64,000 nucleotides of DNA from a virus (lineage: Duplodnaviria; Caudoviricetes): positions 98,181 to 162,180 of the IMG/VR virus record IMGVR_UViG_3300000439_000004, one strand, 5' to 3'. The translations under genes and the position numbers were made by a program. Below are positions 15,046-61,439 of this stretch, in pieces (positions within the stretch are counted from its first letter, which is position 1; every line of letters begins with the position of its first letter). The notes under the pieces were generated by a model, which did not search any database, had not been told where the DNA came from, and saw only the letters and a program-made list of their open reading frames with translations.

Positions 15046-16020
15046 ATGACATTTAATGATTTCAAAACATTTTTTTCAAGTAACCTAAAATGGGTATATA
15101 GAGATAAATGTGATGCTGTTCTTAAAAGACAATACACTAAAATTGGTAAATATCGTTTTTGTGATAAAAATCAAAAATATGGTATCCTTGATAATGATGG
15201 TAGATGGGGGTTTGAAAATACCATAAATACTAATTCAAGATGTGCATTAGAATTATATAATATTTATCTTGAGTTTGGTAATGAAAAATTAGATTTTTTT
15301 GATAATACAGAATATTCAATTAATAAATTATGGAATTTTATTGAAGAAAACTTTGAATTATTGTTAACTTATAATATTGAAACAAAATACTATCATAGGT
15401 TTAGACTTATTTGTAATCTTTCTTGGTCAAGAGGTCAAATAACATCGGTTTTATTTTACCTAACTCATAAAAATATATTTCCTGACACTATTAAAACGAC
15501 TATTGAATTAGAAAGAGGTTTGTTTTTAGATTTAAAAGGAATTGATGGATTGTTAACACAAAAAGATGGGACTGATATAACGTTACAAATAAAAAGTGGA
15601 TCTTTTGAAAAGAAGAAACGATTTTATATAATTAATGGTGCTCAAAATGATTTTAATAGTCCCACTAATTATTATTGTTATATTAATATCGGTGAAAATA
15701 ATAACCAAATTATTGTTTTTGAAAATAAAAAAGAAAACATAATGTCAAATGGTAGTCAATGTATAATTGATGAAGAATTTGTAAAATATATAGATATGGA
15801 AAATAAAGAAAATATATCACAAAAATTAATGGAAATATTATTGTTTTGTTCAAAAAATAAATTTGTTTTTGAATTAAAAAATAATGAAGATGAAAATGGA
15901 TTTAAAATTGATACTGAACCTGAAAAAGTGGTAACAATTTCAATTAAAGATTTTGAAGATAAAGATTTATATGATTTATTGGAAGAGAACTTTAACTTAT
16001 TAAAGAATCTCCCCCAATAA
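15046..16020 (+). CDS. Hypothetical protein, possible PD-(D/E)xK nuclease fold
   Basis: DLKGIDGLL..TLQIKS. Confidence 0.45.
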   Translation: MTFNDFKTFFSSNLKWVYRDKCDAVLKRQYTKIGKYRFCDKNQKYGILDNDGRWGFENTINTNSRCALELYNIYLEFGNEKLDFFDNTEYSINKLWNFIEENFELLLTYNIETKYYHRFRLICNLSWSRGQITSVLFYLTHKNIFPDTIKTTIELERGLFLDLKGIDGLLTQKDGTDITLQIKSGSFEKKKRFYIINGAQNDFNSPTNYYCYINIGENNNQIIVFENKKENIMSNGSQCIIDEEFVKYIDMENKENISQKLMEILLFCSKNKFVFELKNNEDENGFKIDTEPEKVVTISIKDFEDKDLYDLLEENFNLLKNLPQ

Positions 16021-18846
16021 TTCTTTCGTAAAGGATTCTGAATATTCCCCGTCACCCATTACCTGATCTATAATGTTTTTCTTTTTATTCAACATATTAT
16101 AGATTATTCTTTCTATTGTATTATCAAATATTGGGTAATAAACCATGACACCCTTTTTTTGACCATATCTGTATGCCCTATCTTCTGCTTGTGAATGTAA
16201 TGCCGGTACAAATGCCAAGTCATTCATAATTACAACTTCCGCTGCAGTTAAAGTAATGCCAACACCACCAGCAACAATGTTAGAAATGAATATTTTTATT
16301 TTATCTTCATTTTGAAATTTATCAACACTTTCCTGTCTTTTTTCTTTTGACATTCTACCATCTAATATTACTGAATTTTTCTTGTATTTTTCATGTAACA
16401 TATCCAATGTCATTGTGAAATTAGTAAATACAATAACCTTTTTATCTTGTTCTAATGCTTTATCAATTAATTCACAAGTATAGTCTATTTTTTCAAATGA
16501 TATTACTTGTCTAATTTTCATTAAACGATTGATTGTAACGGTAATATTTTCATTATCCTTCTTTTCGTTAGAAATCCTCATGAAATCTTCCAACTCTTCT
16601 TCATAATAGGTACTTTTTAACTCCAAAAAAACTGGTGATATAAACTTCTCTGGCAAATCTAATATATCCGTCTTCATTCGTCTTAAAACAAGGTTTTTTG
16701 TACGTTCTCTTAGTTCATCTAAGTGACTAGCACCACTAGTATTCCATATTTTTTTACCATTTACAGTAAATTGAAATCCTTTACAATATCTTTTAACATA
16801 ACTTTGCCAATTAAGAGTTAAAGGTGATTCAACAATGTTCAAAAGATTAAAATAATTTATAGGTCTTGATGTCATGGGTGTACCAGTTAATAACCAAACT
16901 TTAGGTATTTTAGATAAAATATCATTTAATAGTTTAGTTCTATTTGCTGTGGTGTTTGAAATCATATGTGCTTCATCCACGATGGCTAAATCAAATTTTT
17001 CATTTTCTATTAAATTTAATTCAGGGTTTTCGTTACCTATTGCATGATAGTTTTTTATAATATCATAATTGATAATATAAAACTTAAATGTAGACCCCCA
17101 TTTTTTACCTTCGACAATTAAAACACGTTCATCTGAATAGTTTTTAATTTCTCTTAACCAGTTAATCTTTAATGATGCTGGACAAATAATTAATATTTTT
17201 TTTGCACCACTTTCTAATGATGCAATGGCAGCTGAGGTTGTATTATGTGTAACAATAGCATGTTCAGCAACATATAATTTATCAGGTGAATCAACTGAAA
17301 TACATGTGCATTCACTTTCACCATATTTTTCAATATTGGTAATATATCTACCCGTTGGATATTTTTTAGGTTCATTATATAATTCTAATTTTCGTTTTAA
17401 ACGAAATGGGTTCATACCTGGTGGTAATTTTATATTTAATCTATATGATATTTTACATTCAACTCTAACCCCGTTTTTTTTGTAAAAACTTCTTCTTGAC
17501 CTTTTTCTACATATACCACCTAAAGTATGTACAATTTCAGCAAGATCGTCACATAATTTTTCAGATACGGTTGAATATTCAGTTCCATTAAAATTACCAT
17601 TTTTTGATTTCATACAATGTCCATCAGTATCCATTAAACCTTGTAAAATAGATAAACGATTTTCAATTGATGAATATTTGTATATATCAGGTATAAATTT
17701 ATTATGTGATCGAGTATGTTCCAAATGTAGATCAAATAATGAATTTCCAACATTTATATAACCATTTCTTTTGTTATCTTGTGGTTTATTTTCTTTTAAT
17801 CCAAATAAACTAAATAAAGAATCATAATCATCTTTATGAACAGAAAATTTTATGTTTTTATTTTTAAATGACCCGTCACCCAATCCAAGTCCTAACAAAT
17901 AAGGATCAATCGGTAAAATATTTTTATTATCAAATTCTATTGGTTTAACAATTGGTATTTGCCACTTATTATTTCCATTGGGGGATTTATAATATGTTTC
18001 AATTTTGTAATCTCTATCTTCATTATAACCACTACCTTTTATTAAAATTTTCCCACCTTCAAACATTTGTTTAGTTGATAATACTAAAGATTTTTTTAAT
18101 CTATCATTTTTTCTATTTTTACCATAATTTGGAGATGAAACTGACCATAAATGTTCATCCCCACTTAAAATTGTATATCCATCATTAAAAGTTATTTTAT
18201 ACGTTTCTTTTTTACCTTGAGGAAATACACCAATTACATTACACGGTTTACCATTTGAACCGATTACCTTATCACCAATAACAATTTCACCCATTTTTTT
18301 CACACCTAACTCATTGTAAATCAATGTGTTATTGTCTAAAAATTTCCCTAAACCCATATCATCCGCTAATATGAATTTATCATTTGCCAATAATTTTTCA
18401 ATTGCAATTTTTTGATGATCCATTGGTGGTCTGGTACTATAAGGACTATAATCAATAACTCTATTTAACTTTTTTTCAGGTTGAACAATTGCCGCCTTTG
18501 GTAACCAAAATGCATGATTAACTTCGTGATCAAGATATTTTCCCCATATATGGTAAGCCTTATCGCTTTCACATAATAATTTTTCACACCAAATATGTTC
18601 CAATTTATCTAATAATAGACGTTCATCCATTATTTTTTCAGCGAAAGAATCAACTATTTTAATATGTTTTTTTGCTACTTTTGGTTCAACGTTATGGTAG
18701 TTTAATACATAATCTGATTGTGGGCGTGTCAATTTAAAGTTCTTAACAGACGTGAACTTGTTCTTCAATTCTAATAGATGGTTATTTGCACCACTATATT
18801 CTAATAATATTTCTCTAGCCCTGATTTCAGGAATTTTATTATTCAT
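16000..18846 (-). CDS. SNF2/SMARCAL1-like helicase with an intein in Walker A
   Basis: DDMGLGK|T, CPASL, DEAH, LTGTP, QAEDRAYRYGQ. Confidence 0.92.
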   Translation of the reverse strand: MNNKIPEIRAREILLEYSGANNHLLELKNKFTSVKNFKLTRPQSDYVLNYHNVEPKVAKKHIKIVDSFAEKIMDERLLLDKLEHIWCEKLLCESDKAYHIWGKYLDHEVNHAFWLPKAAIVQPEKKLNRVIDYSPYSTRPPMDHQKIAIEKLLANDKFILADDMGLGKFLDNNTLIYNELGVKKMGEIVIGDKVIGSNGKPCNVIGVFPQGKKETYKITFNDGYTILSGDEHLWSVSSPNYGKNRKNDRLKKSLVLSTKQMFEGGKILIKGSGYNEDRDYKIETYYKSPNGNNKWQIPIVKPIEFDNKNILPIDPYLLGLGLGDGSFKNKNIKFSVHKDDYDSLFSLFGLKENKPQDNKRNGYINVGNSLFDLHLEHTRSHNKFIPDIYKYSSIENRLSILQGLMDTDGHCMKSKNGNFNGTEYSTVSEKLCDDLAEIVHTLGGICRKRSRRSFYKKNGVRVECKISYRLNIKLPPGMNPFRLKRKLELYNEPKKYPTGRYITNIEKYGESECTCISVDSPDKLYVAEHAIVTHNTTSAAIASLESGAKKILIICPASLKINWLREIKNYSDERVLIVEGKKWGSTFKFYIINYDIIKNYHAIGNENPELNLIENEKFDLAIVDEAHMISNTTANRTKLLNDILSKIPKVWLLTGTPMTSRPINYFNLLNIVESPLTLNWQSYVKRYCKGFQFTVNGKKIWNTSGASHLDELRERTKNLVLRRMKTDILDLPEKFISPVFLELKSTYYEEELEDFMRISNEKKDNENITVTINRLMKIRQVISFEKIDYTCELIDKALEQDKKVIVFTNFTMTLDMLHEKYKKNSVILDGRMSKEKRQESVDKFQNEDKIKIFISNIVAGGVGITLTAAEVVIMNDLAFVPALHSQAEDRAYRYGQKKGVMVYYPIFDNTIERIIYNMLNKKKNIIDQVMGDGEYSESFTKELLGEIL
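17242..18342 (-). mobile_element. Cis-intein (367 aa), class 3 signature, Phe at position 1
   Basis: GK|FLDNNT..DEHLW..LGLGLGDG..GLMDTDG..CTCISV..VTHN|T. Confidence 0.9.
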
Positions 18847-18894
18847 AATAAAATATAATAAAATGGAATGACATTTTAAAGTATTTATAAGTAT

Positions 18895-18948
18895 ATGGAT
18901 AATAAATTACCTATCACGCGTCTTTCTAAATTAAAAATCTATTTATAA
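18895..18948 (+). pseudogene. Truncated relic 5' end of the head-completion gene at 19708
   Basis: MDNKLPITRLSKLKIYL* versus MSDSRIPITRLSKFISE. Confidence 0.8.
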
Positions 18949-18950
18949 TT

Positions 18951-19715
18951 ATGATAATTTATAAAACAACAAATATAATAAACAATAAAATTTATATCGG
19001 TCAAGATAAAAATAATAATCCTAATTACATTGGTTCTGGTAATCTAATAAAATATGCAATAAAGAAATATGGAAAAGAAAATTTTATTAAAGAAATTTTA
19101 TACTATTGTTTAACGATAAATGAGTTAAATGAAAAAGAACGTTTTTATATAAAACAATATAATTCTACCGATAAAAATATTGGTTATAATATTTCTGTTG
19201 GTGGAACGAATGGCGTGATGTTGTTTAGAAAACATACAAAAGAAACAATTGAAAAAATGAAAAATTCATCAATAGGTAAAAAAAAGTCAGAATCTCATTG
19301 TAAAAACATTGGATTATCTAAAAAAGGTAGAATAGTATCCGATGAAGAAAAAAGAAAAAGAAGTGAGAATAGTCCATTAAAGGGAATTAAAAAATTACCA
19401 ATGAGTGATGAAATTAAAAAAAAGATTAGTGAAACGAAAAAGGGTACTAAACATCGTAAAGAAACTATACTAAAATTAAGGGAATTAAATATTGGATCAA
19501 AAAATTATTTTTATGGTAAAAAACATTCAGAAGAATTTTTAAAATCTAAAAGGAAAAAAATAATACAAATTAGTTTAAATGATGAATTTATCAAAGAGTG
19601 GGAAAGTTTAAGTGAAGCAAGTAAAAACTTGAATATTTATGTAAGTAATATCTGTAATGTCTTAAAAGGAAGATATAAGACTACAGGTGGTTTTAAATTT
19701 ACATATTATGAGTGA
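18951..19715 (+). CDS. GIY-YIG homing endonuclease (Seg-like) with NUMOD3/NUMOD1 domains
   Basis: IIYKTTN..KIYIGQ..YIGSG; KHTKETIEKM repeats; C-terminal FIKEWESLSEASK..GGFKF. Confidence 0.9.
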   Translation: MIIYKTTNIINNKIYIGQDKNNNPNYIGSGNLIKYAIKKYGKENFIKEILYYCLTINELNEKERFYIKQYNSTDKNIGYNISVGGTNGVMLFRKHTKETIEKMKNSSIGKKKSESHCKNIGLSKKGRIVSDEEKRKRSENSPLKGIKKLPMSDEIKKKISETKKGTKHRKETILKLRELNIGSKNYFYGKKHSEEFLKSKRKKIIQISLNDEFIKEWESLSEASKNLNIYVSNICNVLKGRYKTTGGFKFTYYE

Positions 19716-20223
19716 TTCAAGAATTCCTATTACGAGACTTTCTAAATTTATTTCTGAAGATGATTTTCAACTCAATATTTCAATGGGGGAAGAATACCTT
19801 CATGGTGATTTAAATATGAAACTTGTATTATATAGGGTTGATAGACAAAAAACAGATATTGACAATGTATATGGTGAAGTTGGGATGGATGAAATTAAAT
19901 ATCAACCACCTGTTGAATTTAATGCTTTGGTTAAAATTATTGAACCAAAAAATAGTTCATATAAGGATGGTTTGGTAAGATATAATGAACCCGGAAATAT
20001 GACTGTATCAGTTTATATCAAACATTTAAATGATATGAAAATTGATATTAAATATGGTGATTATATAGGTTATCCTGAATCTGAAACAAAAACAAGATAT
20101 TATAGTGTTGTGGACGATGGAAAAGTAACTTCAGACAATAAACATACGATGTTCGGTTATAAACCTTTTTACAGGACTATAACTTGTTCACCTGTACAAG
20201 ACGGAGAATTTAGAGGAGTTTAA
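19708..20223 (+). CDS. Head completion/neck protein (gp14-like)
   Basis: Position before the terminator and sheath genes; VYGE motif; start overlaps the endonuclease stop (ATGAGTGA). Confidence 0.6.
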   Translation: MSDSRIPITRLSKFISEDDFQLNISMGEEYLHGDLNMKLVLYRVDRQKTDIDNVYGEVGMDEIKYQPPVEFNALVKIIEPKNSSYKDGLVRYNEPGNMTVSVYIKHLNDMKIDIKYGDYIGYPESETKTRYYSVVDDGKVTSDNKHTMFGYKPFYRTITCSPVQDGEFRGV

Positions 20224-21741: not shown

Positions 21742-24700
21742 ATGGCAAATTCAAACAGAGTATTCGTTTCTCCGGGTGTATATACATCAGAGCTCGATTT
21801 AACATTTGTGGCACAAAGTGTTGGTGTTACAACATTGGGTTTAGTGGGTGAGACTTTAAAAGGTCCGGCTTTTGAACCTATCTTAATTTCATCTTGGGAT
21901 GATTTTACAACATATTTTGGTAGTTCTTCACCTGAAAAAGATGGTGTTGGAAATCCAAAATACGAATTACCTTACTTCGCAAATTCTTATTTATCAGAAG
22001 CAAATCAATTATTCGTTACAAGAATACTTGGTTATACAGGGTATAAACAATATAATACATTTGGTATTAGTACAGAAGGTGGCGCACAAATTACAAACTA
22101 TTCAACAAGTGCATTAACAATAACAACTGTAACTGGTATTACTATTCCATCAAATCATGTTATAATTTCATCATTTAGTAATTACACTTCAATATCTGGT
22201 ACAATGCAAAAAGCGTTTTCAGGTATGACAGGAAGTACTTTTTACTCAAATTTATCAGGAAAAACTGCCGTTAGTGGAACAACAGGTACAACAGTTGTGT
22301 CATATATAACTGGTGGTACCTTTAATAATGGTGATTATTTCACTATTGGTTATGTACCAACAGGTTTAACATCAGGATTAACAGGTAATACATTAGTGTC
22401 TCCAATTGGTACTTTAACAGATTTAAATTGGAATGATGTGTATTATACAGGTACAACTGCAAGTATTACATCAACAACTGGTGTTTATTCATATTTATTT
22501 GTTTATTCAGCATCAACATCTACTTTTAATGTCACTAGATTACTTTATAGTGCTTCATATCAATATAGTATAAATGACCCTAATTTCCAATTTTATCCAC
22601 AATTATCTGGTAACACCGCAAGTAATGGAACATTATTAAATAATTATATTTTATCAAATATTAGTGGTAATACAAGTACTGATAGTACATGGTTTACAAT
22701 TGGTCTTGTACCTAGTAGTTATACTAGTGGTTTAACAACAACTTTAAATGTACCATCGCCAGTAACATCAAGAAATAATGCTAGCGATTATAATGGTAAA
22801 GAATGGTATAATATTTTTTGTGATTTGGATTTATCAGGTAATATACAAAGTGTTTCATCATATTTATTTCAATATTATTTAAATAGTGATAATACTAATA
22901 CACCTTTTTATAGTGTAACAAGATTTCAATATCCAGCCACTATAAATTCAGCATACGATGACATTATTGTTGCCGCATTAAGACCTCGTGGACATTATTC
23001 AAGTAATGTATTGAAATATGAGGTTACTGGTAGTTCATATGTTAATATCACATCATCATATGATTTATCACAAAACCCATTCGCTGATTTTGTAATAAAT
23101 GTAACCGGTAATACTGGTGGTGCTAAATCATTGACAGTTAATTTAGATCAAACATCAAATAAATCAATAACAAAAGTATTAGGTACAGATGTTTATGATA
23201 GAAATTACACAGATAATCCATTATATGTTTTTGAATTCTATCCTAACTTTTTATTAAACGCATTTGAACAAGGTTATATTAGAGGTATTTCAACACAAGT
23301 TATTTATGATACAAATAATGATTCATTTTTACCTAACCCTAATGGAGATTATGGTTCATATAAAGCATATGATACCCCAATGTCACCAACGGTTGTTTCT
23401 GAAGTAAGAGGTGGTAAAGTATTAGATTTATTTAATATAATTACAATATCAGATGGTGACTCAGCAAATGAAGATATTAAAATAACAATTCAAAATATCA
23501 ATACAGATACTGGTGAATTTGATTTAATTGTTAGAGATTTTAATGATAGTGATTCAAATCAAGTTTTACTTGAAAAATTTTCAAGATGTTCTATGAATCC
23601 AGATGTTCCAGGTTATGTGGCGTTAAAAGTAGGTACATCTGATGGACAATTCCCATTATTATCAAAATATATAATGTTGAGTATGGACCCTAACGCACCT
23701 TCTGATGCAATACCTGCTGGATTTAGAGGTTTTGTAAGAAATAGTGATTTTGGTTCAGGTAATGAAAAACTTGGTTCAGTACTTTATAAAACACAATATT
23801 TCACCGCTGGTGATACAATGTATTATGATAGTACAGGTGCACCTATTACTTCATCAGGTGATAAAGTTAGAAACGTAACATTAGGTTTATCTTCATCAAA
23901 TGGTTTCAATTATGATGCAGATTTATTCAAATATAAAGGTTGGAGATCAGCGGGACAAACATTTGGTTTCCACTTATCCGTAAATGCAACTGGTATAACT
24001 CAAACTGGTACAACATATCAAACAACACCTTACGATTTTGAGGGTCAAACTGGTACTAATAATATGTTAAATACACCAGCGAATTGTAAATTTACTTTTG
24101 CAGTATGTGGTGGTTTTGATGGTTGGGACATATATAGAAACACTAGAACATATGGTGACGCTTATATTTTAGGTAAATCAACATACAATAATAATAACAT
24201 AAACAATGGAGGTATATTTAACGTAACGAATGGTAATTCGGATTACTATTCATATTATGACGGTATCCAAACATTTGCAAATCCAGAAGCAGTAGATATT
24301 AATGTATTCGCAACACCGGGTATTAACTTCTTTGATCATAGTTCTTTAACAAATCAAGCAATTGAAATGATTGAAGTTGATAGAGCGGATTCATTATATG
24401 TCATATCATCACCTAATGAAAGTACTGCGGATGGTGTAATTGGTGATATTATGGATCAAGAATATGATAGTAACTATTCGGCAACATATTGGCCTTGGAT
24501 TCAAGTAAAAGATGTTGATAATGCAACCCAAATTTATATTCCACCAACAGGGGAAGTATTGAGAAATATTGCGTTAACTGATAATATAGCATACCCTTGG
24601 TACGCATCGGCTGGTTATTCAAGAGGTCTTGTTAATTCAATTAAAGCAGTTAAAAAATTAACTGCCGATGAAAGGGATAATTTATATAAAAATAGAATTA

Positions 24701-25089: not shown

Positions 25090-25110
25090 AATTTAAACAT
25101 AATAATTTTA

Positions 25111-25146
25111 AAAAACCTTTTAAGAATTTCTTAAAAGGTTTTTTTA
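25111..25146 (+). terminator. Intrinsic terminator
   Basis: aaaaccttttaaga..tcttaaaaggtttt followed by a T run. Confidence 0.8.
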
Positions 25147-25208
25147 TTTTAATACTTTTTACTATATTTATGTATATATGTTAACGTTACCATTAAATAT
25201 ATTTTACC

Positions 25209-26721
25209 ATGAAGATAGAATTAAAATGTAAAAATTGTAATGAGTCATTTATGACTGATTTTAAATTTAGAGATAAAAGTTTTTGTAATAGAAAATGTTA
25301 TTTTGAGTATGCAAATGAAAATAAGTTACTGGGTAATAAGAAAGATGAATCAGTAAGGGAGAAGAGAATTTGTGTTCAATGTGGAGATGAATTTTTGGAG
25401 AGAAAAAAATATGAAAGAAAATTATGTTCTGAAAAATGTAGAAAAGAATGGAATATTACTGAGGATAATAAAAATGACAGAATAAAAAAATCAAAAGAAT
25501 CGATGATTAATAAATATGGTGTTGATTGTCATTTTAAAACTAATGATTTTAAACTTAATGTTAAAAATTTAATGTTTGAAAAACATGGTGTTTATCACCC
25601 AATGGAAAAAAAAGAATTTGTTGATAAATTAAAAAATACCTTTCGTGAAAATCATTTACCAAAATTAATACAGGAATTAAAAATAAATAATATAGAATTA
25701 ATTGATGATTACATAAACAATAAAGATAAAAATACAAGTAGAACATATAATTTTAAATGTTTAAAATGTGATAATATATTTTCAAGTACATTATTAGGTT
25801 CTGGTAAAATACCTATTTGTAGAAAATGTTATCCAATAATTAAAAATTCATCTATAGAAGTCTTTATTAAATGAAAACCAAATAACACATGTAGATGGTA
25901 ATAGAAAAATTTTAAATGGTAAAGAAATTGATATTTTAATTAAAGAAAAAAATATTGGGTTCGAAATAAATGGTAATTATTATCATTCAGAAATAAGTGG
26001 AGAAAAAGACAAAAATTATCATATTAATAAAAGTAAAATATGTTATGATAATAATATCAAATTAATACATATATATGAAGATGAAATAATGTTAAAATTT
26101 CCGATAGTTAAATCTAGAATTAAAAATATATTGGGAATTTCTGAAAATAAAATATATGGTAGGAAATGTATTGTTAAAGAAATCGATAAAAAAACGGCAT
26201 CTAATTTTTTAGATAAAAATCACATACAAGGTAATTGTGTCGATAAAATTAGATTAGGTTTATTTTATGAAAACACATTGGTTTCTATTATGACATTTTC
26301 AAATAAAAGAAAAGTATTAGGTAATAAATCCGCAATAAATGAATTTGAATTAATACGATTTTGTAATATAGTTGATTCAAATGTAATTGGATCATTTTCA
26401 AAATTATTGAATTATTTTATTAACAATTTTTCACCAAATAAAATTATTACATACGCAGATATTAGATGGTCAGGTTTAAATCCTGAAAGTACAATATACA
26501 AAAAATATGGTTTTAAATTTATAGGTACAACACCACCAAATTATTGGTATTTAAATAGAGAAAATTATTTAAATAGATACCATCGTTTTAATTTTAGAAA
26601 AGATATTTTATTAAAAGAAGGATTTAATAAAATTCAAACAGAATGGGAAATTATGAAATTAAAAAATTATGATAGAATTTGGGATTGTGGATCAATGAAA
26701 TTTGAACTAAATTTATTATAA
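25209..26721 (+). pseudogene. Hef-like/Vsr-like homing endonuclease, frameshifted near 25865
   Basis: Zn-ribbon N-part ends SSIEVFIK*; another frame continues LNENQITHVDGNRKILNGKEIDI..GFEINGNYYHSE into ORF 26089 (KIYGRKC..NHIQG..RIWDCG). Confidence 0.75.
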
Positions 26722-26741
26722 CACCAATAGGTGACTCATTT
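26712..26741 (+). pseudogene. Relic copy of the tail sheath 3' end
   Basis: Reads FIITPIGDSF versus sheath C-terminus FIITPTGASF. Confidence 0.7.
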
Positions 26742-26778
26742 AAAAAAGACCTTGATTTATTTCAAGGTCTTTTTTTTT
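26742..26778. terminator. Bidirectional intrinsic terminator
   Basis: aaaaaagaccttga-tttatt-tcaaggtctttttttt. Confidence 0.85.
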
Positions 26779-60410: not shown

Positions 60411-60524
60411 ATGGGTATACAAAAACATAGAATTTACACCAATATTGGTGTAGATCAAAATATTACCGTAGAACTAAAACAAAATTTCGACATTCTTGAA
60501 ATTTTAAGTTTAAACAGACATTAG
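60411..60524 (+). pseudogene. Truncated relic 5' end of the gene at 61432
   Basis: MGIQKHRIYTNIGVDQNITVELKQNFDILEILSLNRH* versus MNKYRISTNIGKDQFLTINLENSYDLLEILSLKISQ. Confidence 0.85.
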
Positions 60525-60554
60525 GTTTTTTTGAAATTTTATATATTTATAATT

Positions 60555-61439
60555 ATGGAATATATATTTAAAGAAAGAATTAATGTTATTAGTTATAATT
60601 GTGTTTATATGATAAAAAATATTATAAACAACAAAGTTTATATTGGATCAACTATTAAATTAAAAAAAAGAATAATAGTTCATTTTAATTTATTAAAAAA
60701 TAAAAAACACACTAGCATAAAATTACAAAGATCTTGGAATAAACATGGTGAAGAGTCTTTTAGATTTTATATAATTGAAGAAAATATTGATATTAAATTT
60801 TTAATAGAAAGAGAACAATTTTACATTGATACTTATAATTCTGTAAAAAATGGGTTTAATTTAACACCAAAGGCAGGAACTACATTAGGAAATAAATGGT
60901 CTGAAGAATCAAAATTAACGTATTCTAAAATGAAAAAATCATTAGAGCTGGGTGAACCAGTAGTACAATATGATTTAAATGGAAATAAATTGAATGAATT
61001 TAAAAATATGAAAATTGCTGCACTTACAATAGGTTTAAAAAATTCTTCAAATATAGGTATGGTTTGTAGAAAAGAACGTAAAACTTTTGGTGGGTTTATA
61101 TGGGAATATAAAGATTTAGAAAAACAAAAAAAATATGGGGTTCATGAATTTAATAACAATTTTAAATTAGAATGTCCACATTGTAAAAATATTGATTTAA
61201 ATCGAGCTGGATTTGTTTATTTAAAAAATATAAAAAAACAAAATTATAAATGTAAAAATTGTTTAAAAAGATTTAGTGAGACTACTAATAACGGATTTCC
61301 ACCTAATTCTGACATAGAAAAACACAAACAAATAAGAGAACTAAAAGATAAACTAACTTATAAAGAAATTAGTGAAATTGTAAATTTACATCCAAACTCT
61401 GTATATCGAATAATAAAAAAATATATAATTAATGAATAA
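60555..61439 (+). CDS. GIY-YIG homing endonuclease with NUMOD1, Zn ribbon and HTH
   Basis: CVYMIKN..VYIGST..REQFYID; CPHC..CKNC. Confidence 0.88.
   Translation: MEYIFKERINVISYNCVYMIKNIINNKVYIGSTIKLKKRIIVHFNLLKNKKHTSIKLQRSWNKHGEESFRFYIIEENIDIKFLIEREQFYIDTYNSVKNGFNLTPKAGTTLGNKWSEESKLTYSKMKKSLELGEPVVQYDLNGNKLNEFKNMKIAALTIGLKNSSNIGMVCRKERKTFGGFIWEYKDLEKQKKYGVHEFNNNFKLECPHCKNIDLNRAGFVYLKNIKKQNYKCKNCLKRFSETTNNGFPPNSDIEKHKQIRELKDKLTYKEISEIVNLHPNSVYRIIKKYIINE

Follow-up and report, generated by a model that had tools for sequence, protein, structure and literature searches.

How can a gene for a homing endonuclease come to lie inside the 5′ coding end of an essential phage gene, with neither an intron nor an intein to remove it, and leave that gene able to work? 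The question is raised by a stretch of 64,000 nucleotides (nt), hereafter the window, which forms the last 64 kb of the 162-kb IMG/VR virus record IMGVR_UViG_3300000439_000004 (27% G+C). The completeness of this record is 52% according to the CheckV estimate, and the full genome is therefore probably about 300 kb. Next to a divergently transcribed gene for an SNF2 helicase, the window holds a gene for a 254-residue endonuclease. It is preceded by a short copy of the start of a late gene, here called the neck gene, and followed by the complete, working copy of that gene. We propose, with a probability of roughly 0.85, that this arrangement is a mobile homing-endonuclease cassette, which enters an essential late gene at its 5′ coding end, with neither intron nor intein, and brings along a replacement for the start that it displaces.

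The features of the locus are collected in Table 1. A first-pass annotation, made from the letters of the sequence alone, had described two promoter-like motifs, a short open reading frame (ORF), the endonuclease ORF and the 8-nt overlap of the latter with the neck gene, and all of these are present. The SNF2 gene lies on the minus strand, with its boundary at 18846. Relative to about 75 empty alleles in related viral contigs, the insertion lies after codon 12 of a canonical neck gene of 170 codons, and the same Lys codon precedes the junction in every occupied locus. The short ORF, taken in the annotation to be a relic of the gene start, is indeed found at 18895-18948, but it does not end with the shared peptide; it continues for another five codons before its stop, to make 17 in all. 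Codons 1-12 of this relic and codons 2-13 of the 171-residue neck ORF encode near-identical peptides. At the nucleotide level this similarity appears as a direct repeat (18910-18932 and 19726-19748) with 20 of 23 positions equal; no further match with 3 or fewer mismatches exists anywhere in the window, and none was obtained in 100 shuffles. The endonuclease and neck ORFs are separate and in different frames, and the endonuclease has a start of its own.

Table 1. Features of the neck-gene cassette and of similar arrangements, numbered from the first base of the window
Feature	Position	Strand	Remarks
Native spacer between SNF2 gene (divergent) and neck gene, 48 nt	18847-18894	+	Identical to that of empty loci L001-L003
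Native TATTTATA start-proximal motif	18883-18890	+	Within native spacer
Native 5′-end relic, 17 codons	18895-18948	+	12 canonical codons, then 5 junction codons and stop
Insertion relative to canonical gene, 816 nt	18933-19748	+	Leader with own TATTTATA, endonuclease gene, substitute 5′ end; repeat spacing 816 nt
Second TATTTATA	18940-18947	+	In the 18-nt leader of the cassette
Predicted endonuclease gene, 254 residues	18951-19715	+	N-terminal GIY-YIG (I-TevI/Seg type); C-terminal NUMOD3 and I-HmuI-like NUMOD
Substitute 5′ end of neck gene, codons 1-13 plus 2 nt	19708-19748	+	ATG overlaps endonuclease stop, 8 nt
Working neck gene, 171 residues	19708-20223	+	Predicted stopper / T4 gp14-like fold
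3′-end version behind sheath gene	25090-26760		Sheath stop and terminator, two ORFs, near-copy of sheath end
Two ORFs behind sheath gene	25209-25874, 26089-26721		Match two halves of one homing-endonuclease family, phrog_3339
Second cassette of the same design	60411-61439	+	37-codon relic, TATTTATA, GIY-YIG gene, new start
Second relic, 37 codons	60411-60524	+	56 nt after baseplate wedge gene
Second endonuclease, 294 residues, GIY-YIG/NUMOD1/helix-turn-helix	60555-61439	+	Pfam GIY-YIG E 3e-13
Substitute start of baseplate-region gene	61432	+	8-nt overlap with endonuclease stop; N-terminus differs from relic

The ancestral state of the site can be read from a comparison with 80 related loci in viral contigs. 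The endonuclease is absent from 78 of them, and where the start of the SNF2 gene is retained, a gene for 169-170 residues begins 48-58 nt beyond it. About 75 of the loci have a canonical start; they lack the endonuclease, have the 48-58-nt spacer, and begin with a peptide identical to that of the relic, which is, letter for letter, the commonest N-terminus among the 170-residue relatives. The closest relatives of the window (L001-L003; neck protein 93-95% and SNF2 protein 95-97% identical) are likewise empty, and across the spacer and the first 17 coding bases they do not differ from the window, where those bases belong to the relic. Because of this identity, and because the relic peptide is the commonest N-terminus, we conclude that the relic is the displaced native start, still at its native position. 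The annotation had proposed that the relic should match the ancestral start when aligned with endonuclease-free relatives, and this is what we find, at the same distance from the SNF2 gene. Moreover, in every locus that has an endonuclease, or a remnant of one, the start is lengthened, and in every locus with an ordinary short spacer it is canonical. Loci L034-36 (L035 among them) and L080 had been considered as empty sites with a long start; this was rejected, since their starts are canonical and the tblastn match had run upstream. In one locus pair an unrelated ORF lies in a spacer of 621 nt. At L005 (3365-3997), and also at L004, a 633-nt spacer between the SNF2 and neck genes is filled by an ORF of ~190 codons, unassigned in function. 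The neck gene there begins canonically, so that the same hotspot has received an insertion of the ordinary, intergenic kind.

Occupied sites are not limited to the window. They were found at L081, L082, L083, L102, L147 (which overlaps L120), L148, L227-230, L233 and L234/235. Of these, L147 and L148 were added by a metagenome scan with the endonuclease profile, whose other 78 loci are homologues at other sites. In the 10 further occupied loci with upstream sequence, the order is that of the window: spacer, relic, TATTTAT, endonuclease, new start. The identity of the endonuclease across occupied loci is 56-90%, and wherever both are visible its stop lies within 8 nt of the neck ATG. The relics are in different states. 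In six of the 10 loci the ATG and the frame are intact; the other four have lost the ATG and contain in-frame stops, and three of these decayed relics have the same two stop codons in common. All 15 substitute starts are intact. The relic is under no visible coding constraint, intact in young insertions and decayed in older ones.

Other loci appear to be footprints, left after deletion of the endonuclease. At L237 the relic and about 213 endonuclease codons are gone, the last 42 codons and the new start are kept, and the native TATTTATAA is fused to a similar internal sequence. At L236 and L231/232 the spacers are merely 65 and 81 nt, yet the cassette-type start is retained. The persistence of this start where the endonuclease is lacking bears out the view that the cassette provides the working start of the neck gene. 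Further variants were also seen. The distant relative at L148 (2320-3200), with a neck protein of about 50% identity, has the same layout and an intact relic; its endonuclease is shorter, at 215 residues, and lacks the C-terminal helix-turn-helix (HTH)-like domain. At L077 a GIY-YIG gene (55% identical) precedes another start, one codon longer. At L010 (1-286), on a contig that ends 278 nt upstream, an HNH-endonuclease-like C-terminus with repeated HTH modules occupies the same junction, with the same 8-nt overlap and the same cassette-type start, which suggests that the endonuclease was swapped within the cassette.

The 254-residue protein is a predicted GIY-YIG endonuclease of the I-TevI/Seg type, because it matches TIGR01453 (75.5 bits; cut-off 56.05), PHROG 314 (E 4e-47) and PHROG 5123, labelled 'with GIY-YIG motif', and because the GIY-YIG motifs are visible in its sequence. 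The label in the first-pass annotation is therefore upheld by these families and motifs, although the Pfam GIY-YIG model (PF01541) gave no match at E<0.01. In its C-terminal half, Pfam recognizes NUMOD3 (35.3 bits; cut-off 20.4) and an I-HmuI NUMOD-like domain (36.1 bits; cut-off 27). At the nucleotide level the gene resembles T4-type segB and other phage endonuclease genes; phmmer and a profile search of PDB sequences gave no match for either the endonuclease or the neck protein. The ratio of nonsynonymous to synonymous substitution rates (dN/dS) of the endonuclease gene is 0.12-0.35 in 7 loci, indicating purifying selection. Judged from this ratio and the TIGR01453 score, the protein is likely to be a functional enzyme.

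TIGR01453 is named for intron-encoded enzymes, and joining position 18932 to 19749 restores the canonical 170-residue protein exactly. Both observations would suit a group I intron or another spliced element, in which splicing of the transcript would connect the relic, as exon 1, with the gene body. We nevertheless consider such an element highly improbable, and have rejected the group I intron reading. No intron family in Rfam matches at E<=10. In the four occupied loci with decayed relics, the upstream exon would lack an ATG and contain stops, and the neck ORF keeps its substitute start. The footprints have that start with no relic to be spliced to it. Finally, the substitute start is conserved as coding sequence and varies synonymously between loci. 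The proposal in the annotation that the element resides in coding sequence with neither an intron nor an intein thus agrees with the Rfam result and with decayed relics next to intact neck ORFs.

The mobility of the cassette is apparent from two comparisons. Between the window and the occupied locus L227 there is a single mismatch in 18795-19781 (987 nt), and none in 757 positions of the endonuclease gene; beyond the cassette, the two differ by 8.6% in the body of the neck gene and by 8.0% in the next gene. The same cassette is present in four independent assemblies (L227-230). Relative to the empty loci L001-3, for which the background divergence is about 5-8%, the window has no mismatch in 18833-18911, differs at 8 of 21 positions in the 3′ part of the relic and at 10-11 of 22 in the substitute start, and then shows its next mismatch only at 19812 (L001) or 19773 (L002/L003). 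From this pattern of mismatches to L001-3 and L227, the foreign tract extends little beyond the cassette, by a few tens of flanking bases, as the repair of a break with short co-conversion would predict. A tree of the gene body requires at least 8 changes of the occupied state, at least 4 of which are forced by well-supported branches, and the window groups with the empty L001/L002 with support of 99/93. Presence and absence of the cassette are thus polymorphic among close relatives, with converted flanks. The claim that the element is mobile, made before any relative had been examined, is sustained by a near-identical cassette in flanks that diverge by 8% and by the emptiness of the closest relatives.

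What distinguishes the substitute start from the native one was determined by comparing 40 canonical with 15 cassette-type starts, position by position. All 15 of the latter are longer, by one or two codons, and 14 begin with Met-Ser, L077 being different. The fixed differences amount to one extra codon (the second) and two substitutions, all within codons 2-6; from the Pro codon onward there is no consistent difference between the 40 canonical and the 15 cassette-borne starts. The substitute start also lacks the native upstream sequence, and it varies between loci synonymously, as coding sequence does. The annotation had called this start recoded, and had proposed it to resist cleavage, on the basis of different codons for the shared peptide. 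The comparison rejects recoding of the shared peptide as a consistent feature, as those codon differences are ordinary allelic variation; what remains of the idea are the fixed changes in codons 2-6. The occupied allele may therefore be immune because its target site, extending across the start region, is interrupted in both copies.

It is quite possible, if somewhat less probable, that the cassette is the same and immunity comes solely from the splitting of the target. The altered first codons would then be a by-product, either of the endonuclease stop embedded in them or of a divergent donor allele. In most loci the overlapping endonuclease stop falls exactly in the extra Ser codon, the starts show no fixed difference beginning with the Pro codon, and start variants are also seen among empty alleles. 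On the other hand, the changed beginning is common to 14 of the 15 cassette-type starts, across a host-gene divergence of 50-95% (L077 has a different one-codon extension), and the footprints keep it though the overlap serves no purpose there.

The host gene itself belongs to a lineage known solely from metagenomes. The jumbo-phage paper PMC12619734 was considered as an account of this lineage, but a connection between the two could not be established. Its 171-residue product has 1354 homologues, but no match among Pfam, PHROG or TIGR families or PDB sequences, and none by tblastn against GenBank phages. In a structure model with a predicted local distance difference test score (pLDDT) of 62, residues 1-33 are disordered; despite this disorder, Pro7, Ile8, Arg10, Lys13 and Phe14 are invariant in 24 aligned homologues. 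When this pLDDT-62 model was compared with known structures using VIA, it gave Z 8-9.6 to phage stopper and neck chains, including T4 gp14, and such chains make up almost all of the top 30 rows. A Foldseek search of the PDB was less informative, with weak rows only (best E 3e-3). The tail sheath gene lies downstream of the neck gene, at 21742, and L233 has a gp13-like gene near the neck gene. The label 'neck gene', as far as such a model allows, is reasonable but not firm.

Several points weigh against the cassette as we propose it. The first is that the divergence of the endonuclease between loci (56-70% identity) is similar to that of the host gene. Because of this similarity, and of the three decayed relics with common stops, long vertical inheritance with repeated loss also contributes, and accounts for part of the patchy distribution. 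Extended to the whole of the data, this would become an old vertical arrangement, that is, a tandem duplication of the gene start around a resident endonuclease, immobile or domesticated, with patchiness arising by repeated loss. Deletion derivatives do exist, and the two stops common to three relics speak for co-inheritance of relic and endonuclease. We consider this explanation improbable as a full account. It does not anticipate a near-identical cassette in backgrounds 8% apart, nor an endonuclease under purifying selection. Furthermore, the nearest relatives of the window are empty, and because their start differs from the window relic at 8 of 21 positions, they were not derived from it by simple deletion. 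A second point is that all of the sequences are metagenomic assemblies, in which a chimera could sharpen the mosaic boundaries of the window; a chimera could not produce the architecture itself, which recurs in independent assemblies. Third, the assignment of the host gene as a neck gene depends on the pLDDT-62 model. Lastly, a target site lying wholly from the Pro codon onward would leave the occupied allele unprotected.

Within the proposed homing cycle, the enzyme would cut the uninterrupted allele of a co-infecting relative near codons 1-13. The spacer and relic would serve as the left homology arm, and the gene body just beyond the substitute start as the right arm. Repair from the occupied allele would then copy the leader, the endonuclease gene and 13 new codons into the break, so that the replacement codons are joined in frame to the rest of the neck gene. 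The start of the recipient would stay in place and become the new relic. This would account for the composition of the relic in the window, whose first 17 bases belong to the lineage of the window and whose next 21 look imported. The occupied allele would then contain two broken versions of the site. The relic lacks everything past codon 12, and the new copy is altered at its beginning, with one extra codon, changes in codons 2-6, and the native upstream sequence gone.

An insertion at the beginning of a gene must also preserve its expression. Shine-Dalgarno-like sequences are scarce in the genome (G000), at 4 of 143 long ORFs. At 49 of the 143 ORF starts, TATTTAT stands no more than 30 nt from the ATG, mostly 11-13 or 21-23 nt upstream, and the complementary control motif is rarely start-proximal. 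TATTTAT may serve as a phage promoter whose transcripts have a very short leader or none. The TATTTATA motif is present at the native gene and at the endonuclease, and absent from the substitute start. Because the latter has no TATTTAT of its own, the neck gene, as the motifs indicate, must be transcribed through the endonuclease gene. Its translation would then begin either by reinitiation at the overlapping stop and start, or by ordinary leader-independent initiation. Coupled reinitiation is plausible given the conserved overlap; coupling, as had been envisaged in the annotation, would not be required, since this genome initiates almost all of its genes without a Shine-Dalgarno sequence.

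The genome contains five endonuclease-like genes, and two further arrangements in the window resemble that of the neck gene (Table 1). The first is a second cassette of the same design, in the baseplate region. All 80 of its relatives examined lack the endonuclease, and have a start like the second relic, at the same position (spacers of 49-64 nt). A search for close relatives of this second endonuclease gave distant matches alone, of 27-38% identity, and this cassette is independent of that in the neck gene. The second arrangement, behind the sheath gene, is a 3′-end version. Its pair of ORFs looks like a split or frameshifted gene, going by the two halves of the family that they match. The near-copy of the C-terminal residues of the sheath lies at about 26712-26741, and together with a second terminator it takes up about 26712-26770. 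Unrelated endonucleases are found at the neck-gene start, at the start of the baseplate-region gene and at the sheath end, in addition to the HNH-like ORF at the neck junction in L010. On this basis, it is about as likely as not that 'end-swapping' endonuclease cassettes form a general class, as yet undescribed, in large freshwater myophages. We are equally divided on the features that would define this class: essential virion genes as targets, entered by homing at their first or last codons with a replacement end, transcription that passes through the selfish gene, and a changed start that remains as a scar.

Two other observations concern the neighboring genes. The SNF2 gene (16000-18846, minus strand) contains a LAGLIDADG intein at about 17242-18342, residues about 169-535; most relatives lack it, and it is present in L001-3, L015, L021, L025, L032/33, L231 and L234. 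It is a second, independent selfish element adjoining the cassette. In L231, L233 and L234 an extra gene of 195-201 codons, which the window lacks, lies between the neck gene and a gene for 415 residues.

The closest parallels are the mobile ORFs (mORFs) of fungal mitochondria, described first in Allomyces macrogynus atp6 and later in Glomus atp6, atp9, cox2 and nad3 (PMC3630166). These carry a foreign C-terminal segment for the host gene, and the native end persists as a downstream relic, closer to near relatives than is the inserted copy (PMC3630166). In both systems, then, an endonuclease ORF lies in a gene end, with a foreign duplicate of the displaced end and a native relic. The phage cassette is the mirror image, at the 5′ end, and must supply a start codon and a means of expression. 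Whereas several of the mitochondrial endonucleases are fused in phase with the host gene, that of the phage is a separate, overlapping ORF. In the phage, moreover, the host is a structural gene, and the full series from empty site to footprint is visible.

Among phages, the Seg and Mob endonucleases of T4 and its relatives offer the nearest comparison. These too comprise GIY-YIG enzymes with NUMOD/HTH tails, and they have no intron or intein, short co-converted flanks, ORF overlaps and a patchy distribution (PMC2988022). Their genes are intergenic, and a few insertions split genes into two polypeptides (PMC2988022). An intergenic insertion leaves the neighboring coding sequences untouched; the cassette, in contrast, interrupts a coding sequence after codon 12 and contains a second copy of the gene start. 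The gene-splitting insertions, namely mobE in nrdA of Aeh1, mobA with T4 genes 39/60, and a seg gene in gene 43 of phage 25, share with it the location of an endonuclease inside a coding region whose function is kept without splicing (PMC2988022). There, however, two polypeptides reassemble, while the neck gene yields one full-length protein, because the cassette carries a replacement for the part that was cut off. With the group I intron endonucleases of the I-TevI type, the phage enzyme has in common its catalytic domain family and a modular DNA-binding tail; it differs in that Rfam detects no ribozyme, and in that the upstream 'exon' decays in relatives. The first-pass annotation had pointed to a similar logic at the 3′ ends of fungal mitochondrial genes and supposed its 5′ version in phages to be poorly described. 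The former is confirmed by PMC3630166. As to the latter, a limited literature search found no description of a phage cassette that replaces the 5′ end of a gene. The word stem 'duplicat' is absent from the review PMC2988022, and the passages searched in Barth et al. 2023 (PMC10448857) contain no description of the 5′-end architecture.

Free-standing endonucleases of phages have been described as intergenic, save for rare gene-splitters, and an unspliced insertion into coding sequence would be lethal. The neck-gene cassette points to a third way into coding sequence, in which the element displaces one end of a gene and itself supplies a duplicate of that end. The enzyme, together with a predicted natural target of roughly 40 bp, forms a pair suited to studying how GIY-YIG endonucleases discriminate between occupied and empty sites. 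For genome annotation, a short orphan ORF or an unusual N-terminal variant of a phage structural protein can be the scar that such a cassette has left, and can mislead gene callers. The boundaries of the cassettes are recombination breakpoints between phage lineages. Lastly, a single site in metagenomes presents the empty, the freshly occupied, the old and the deleted-with-scar stages, and since all of these stages are present, the homing cycle can be read from sequence data.

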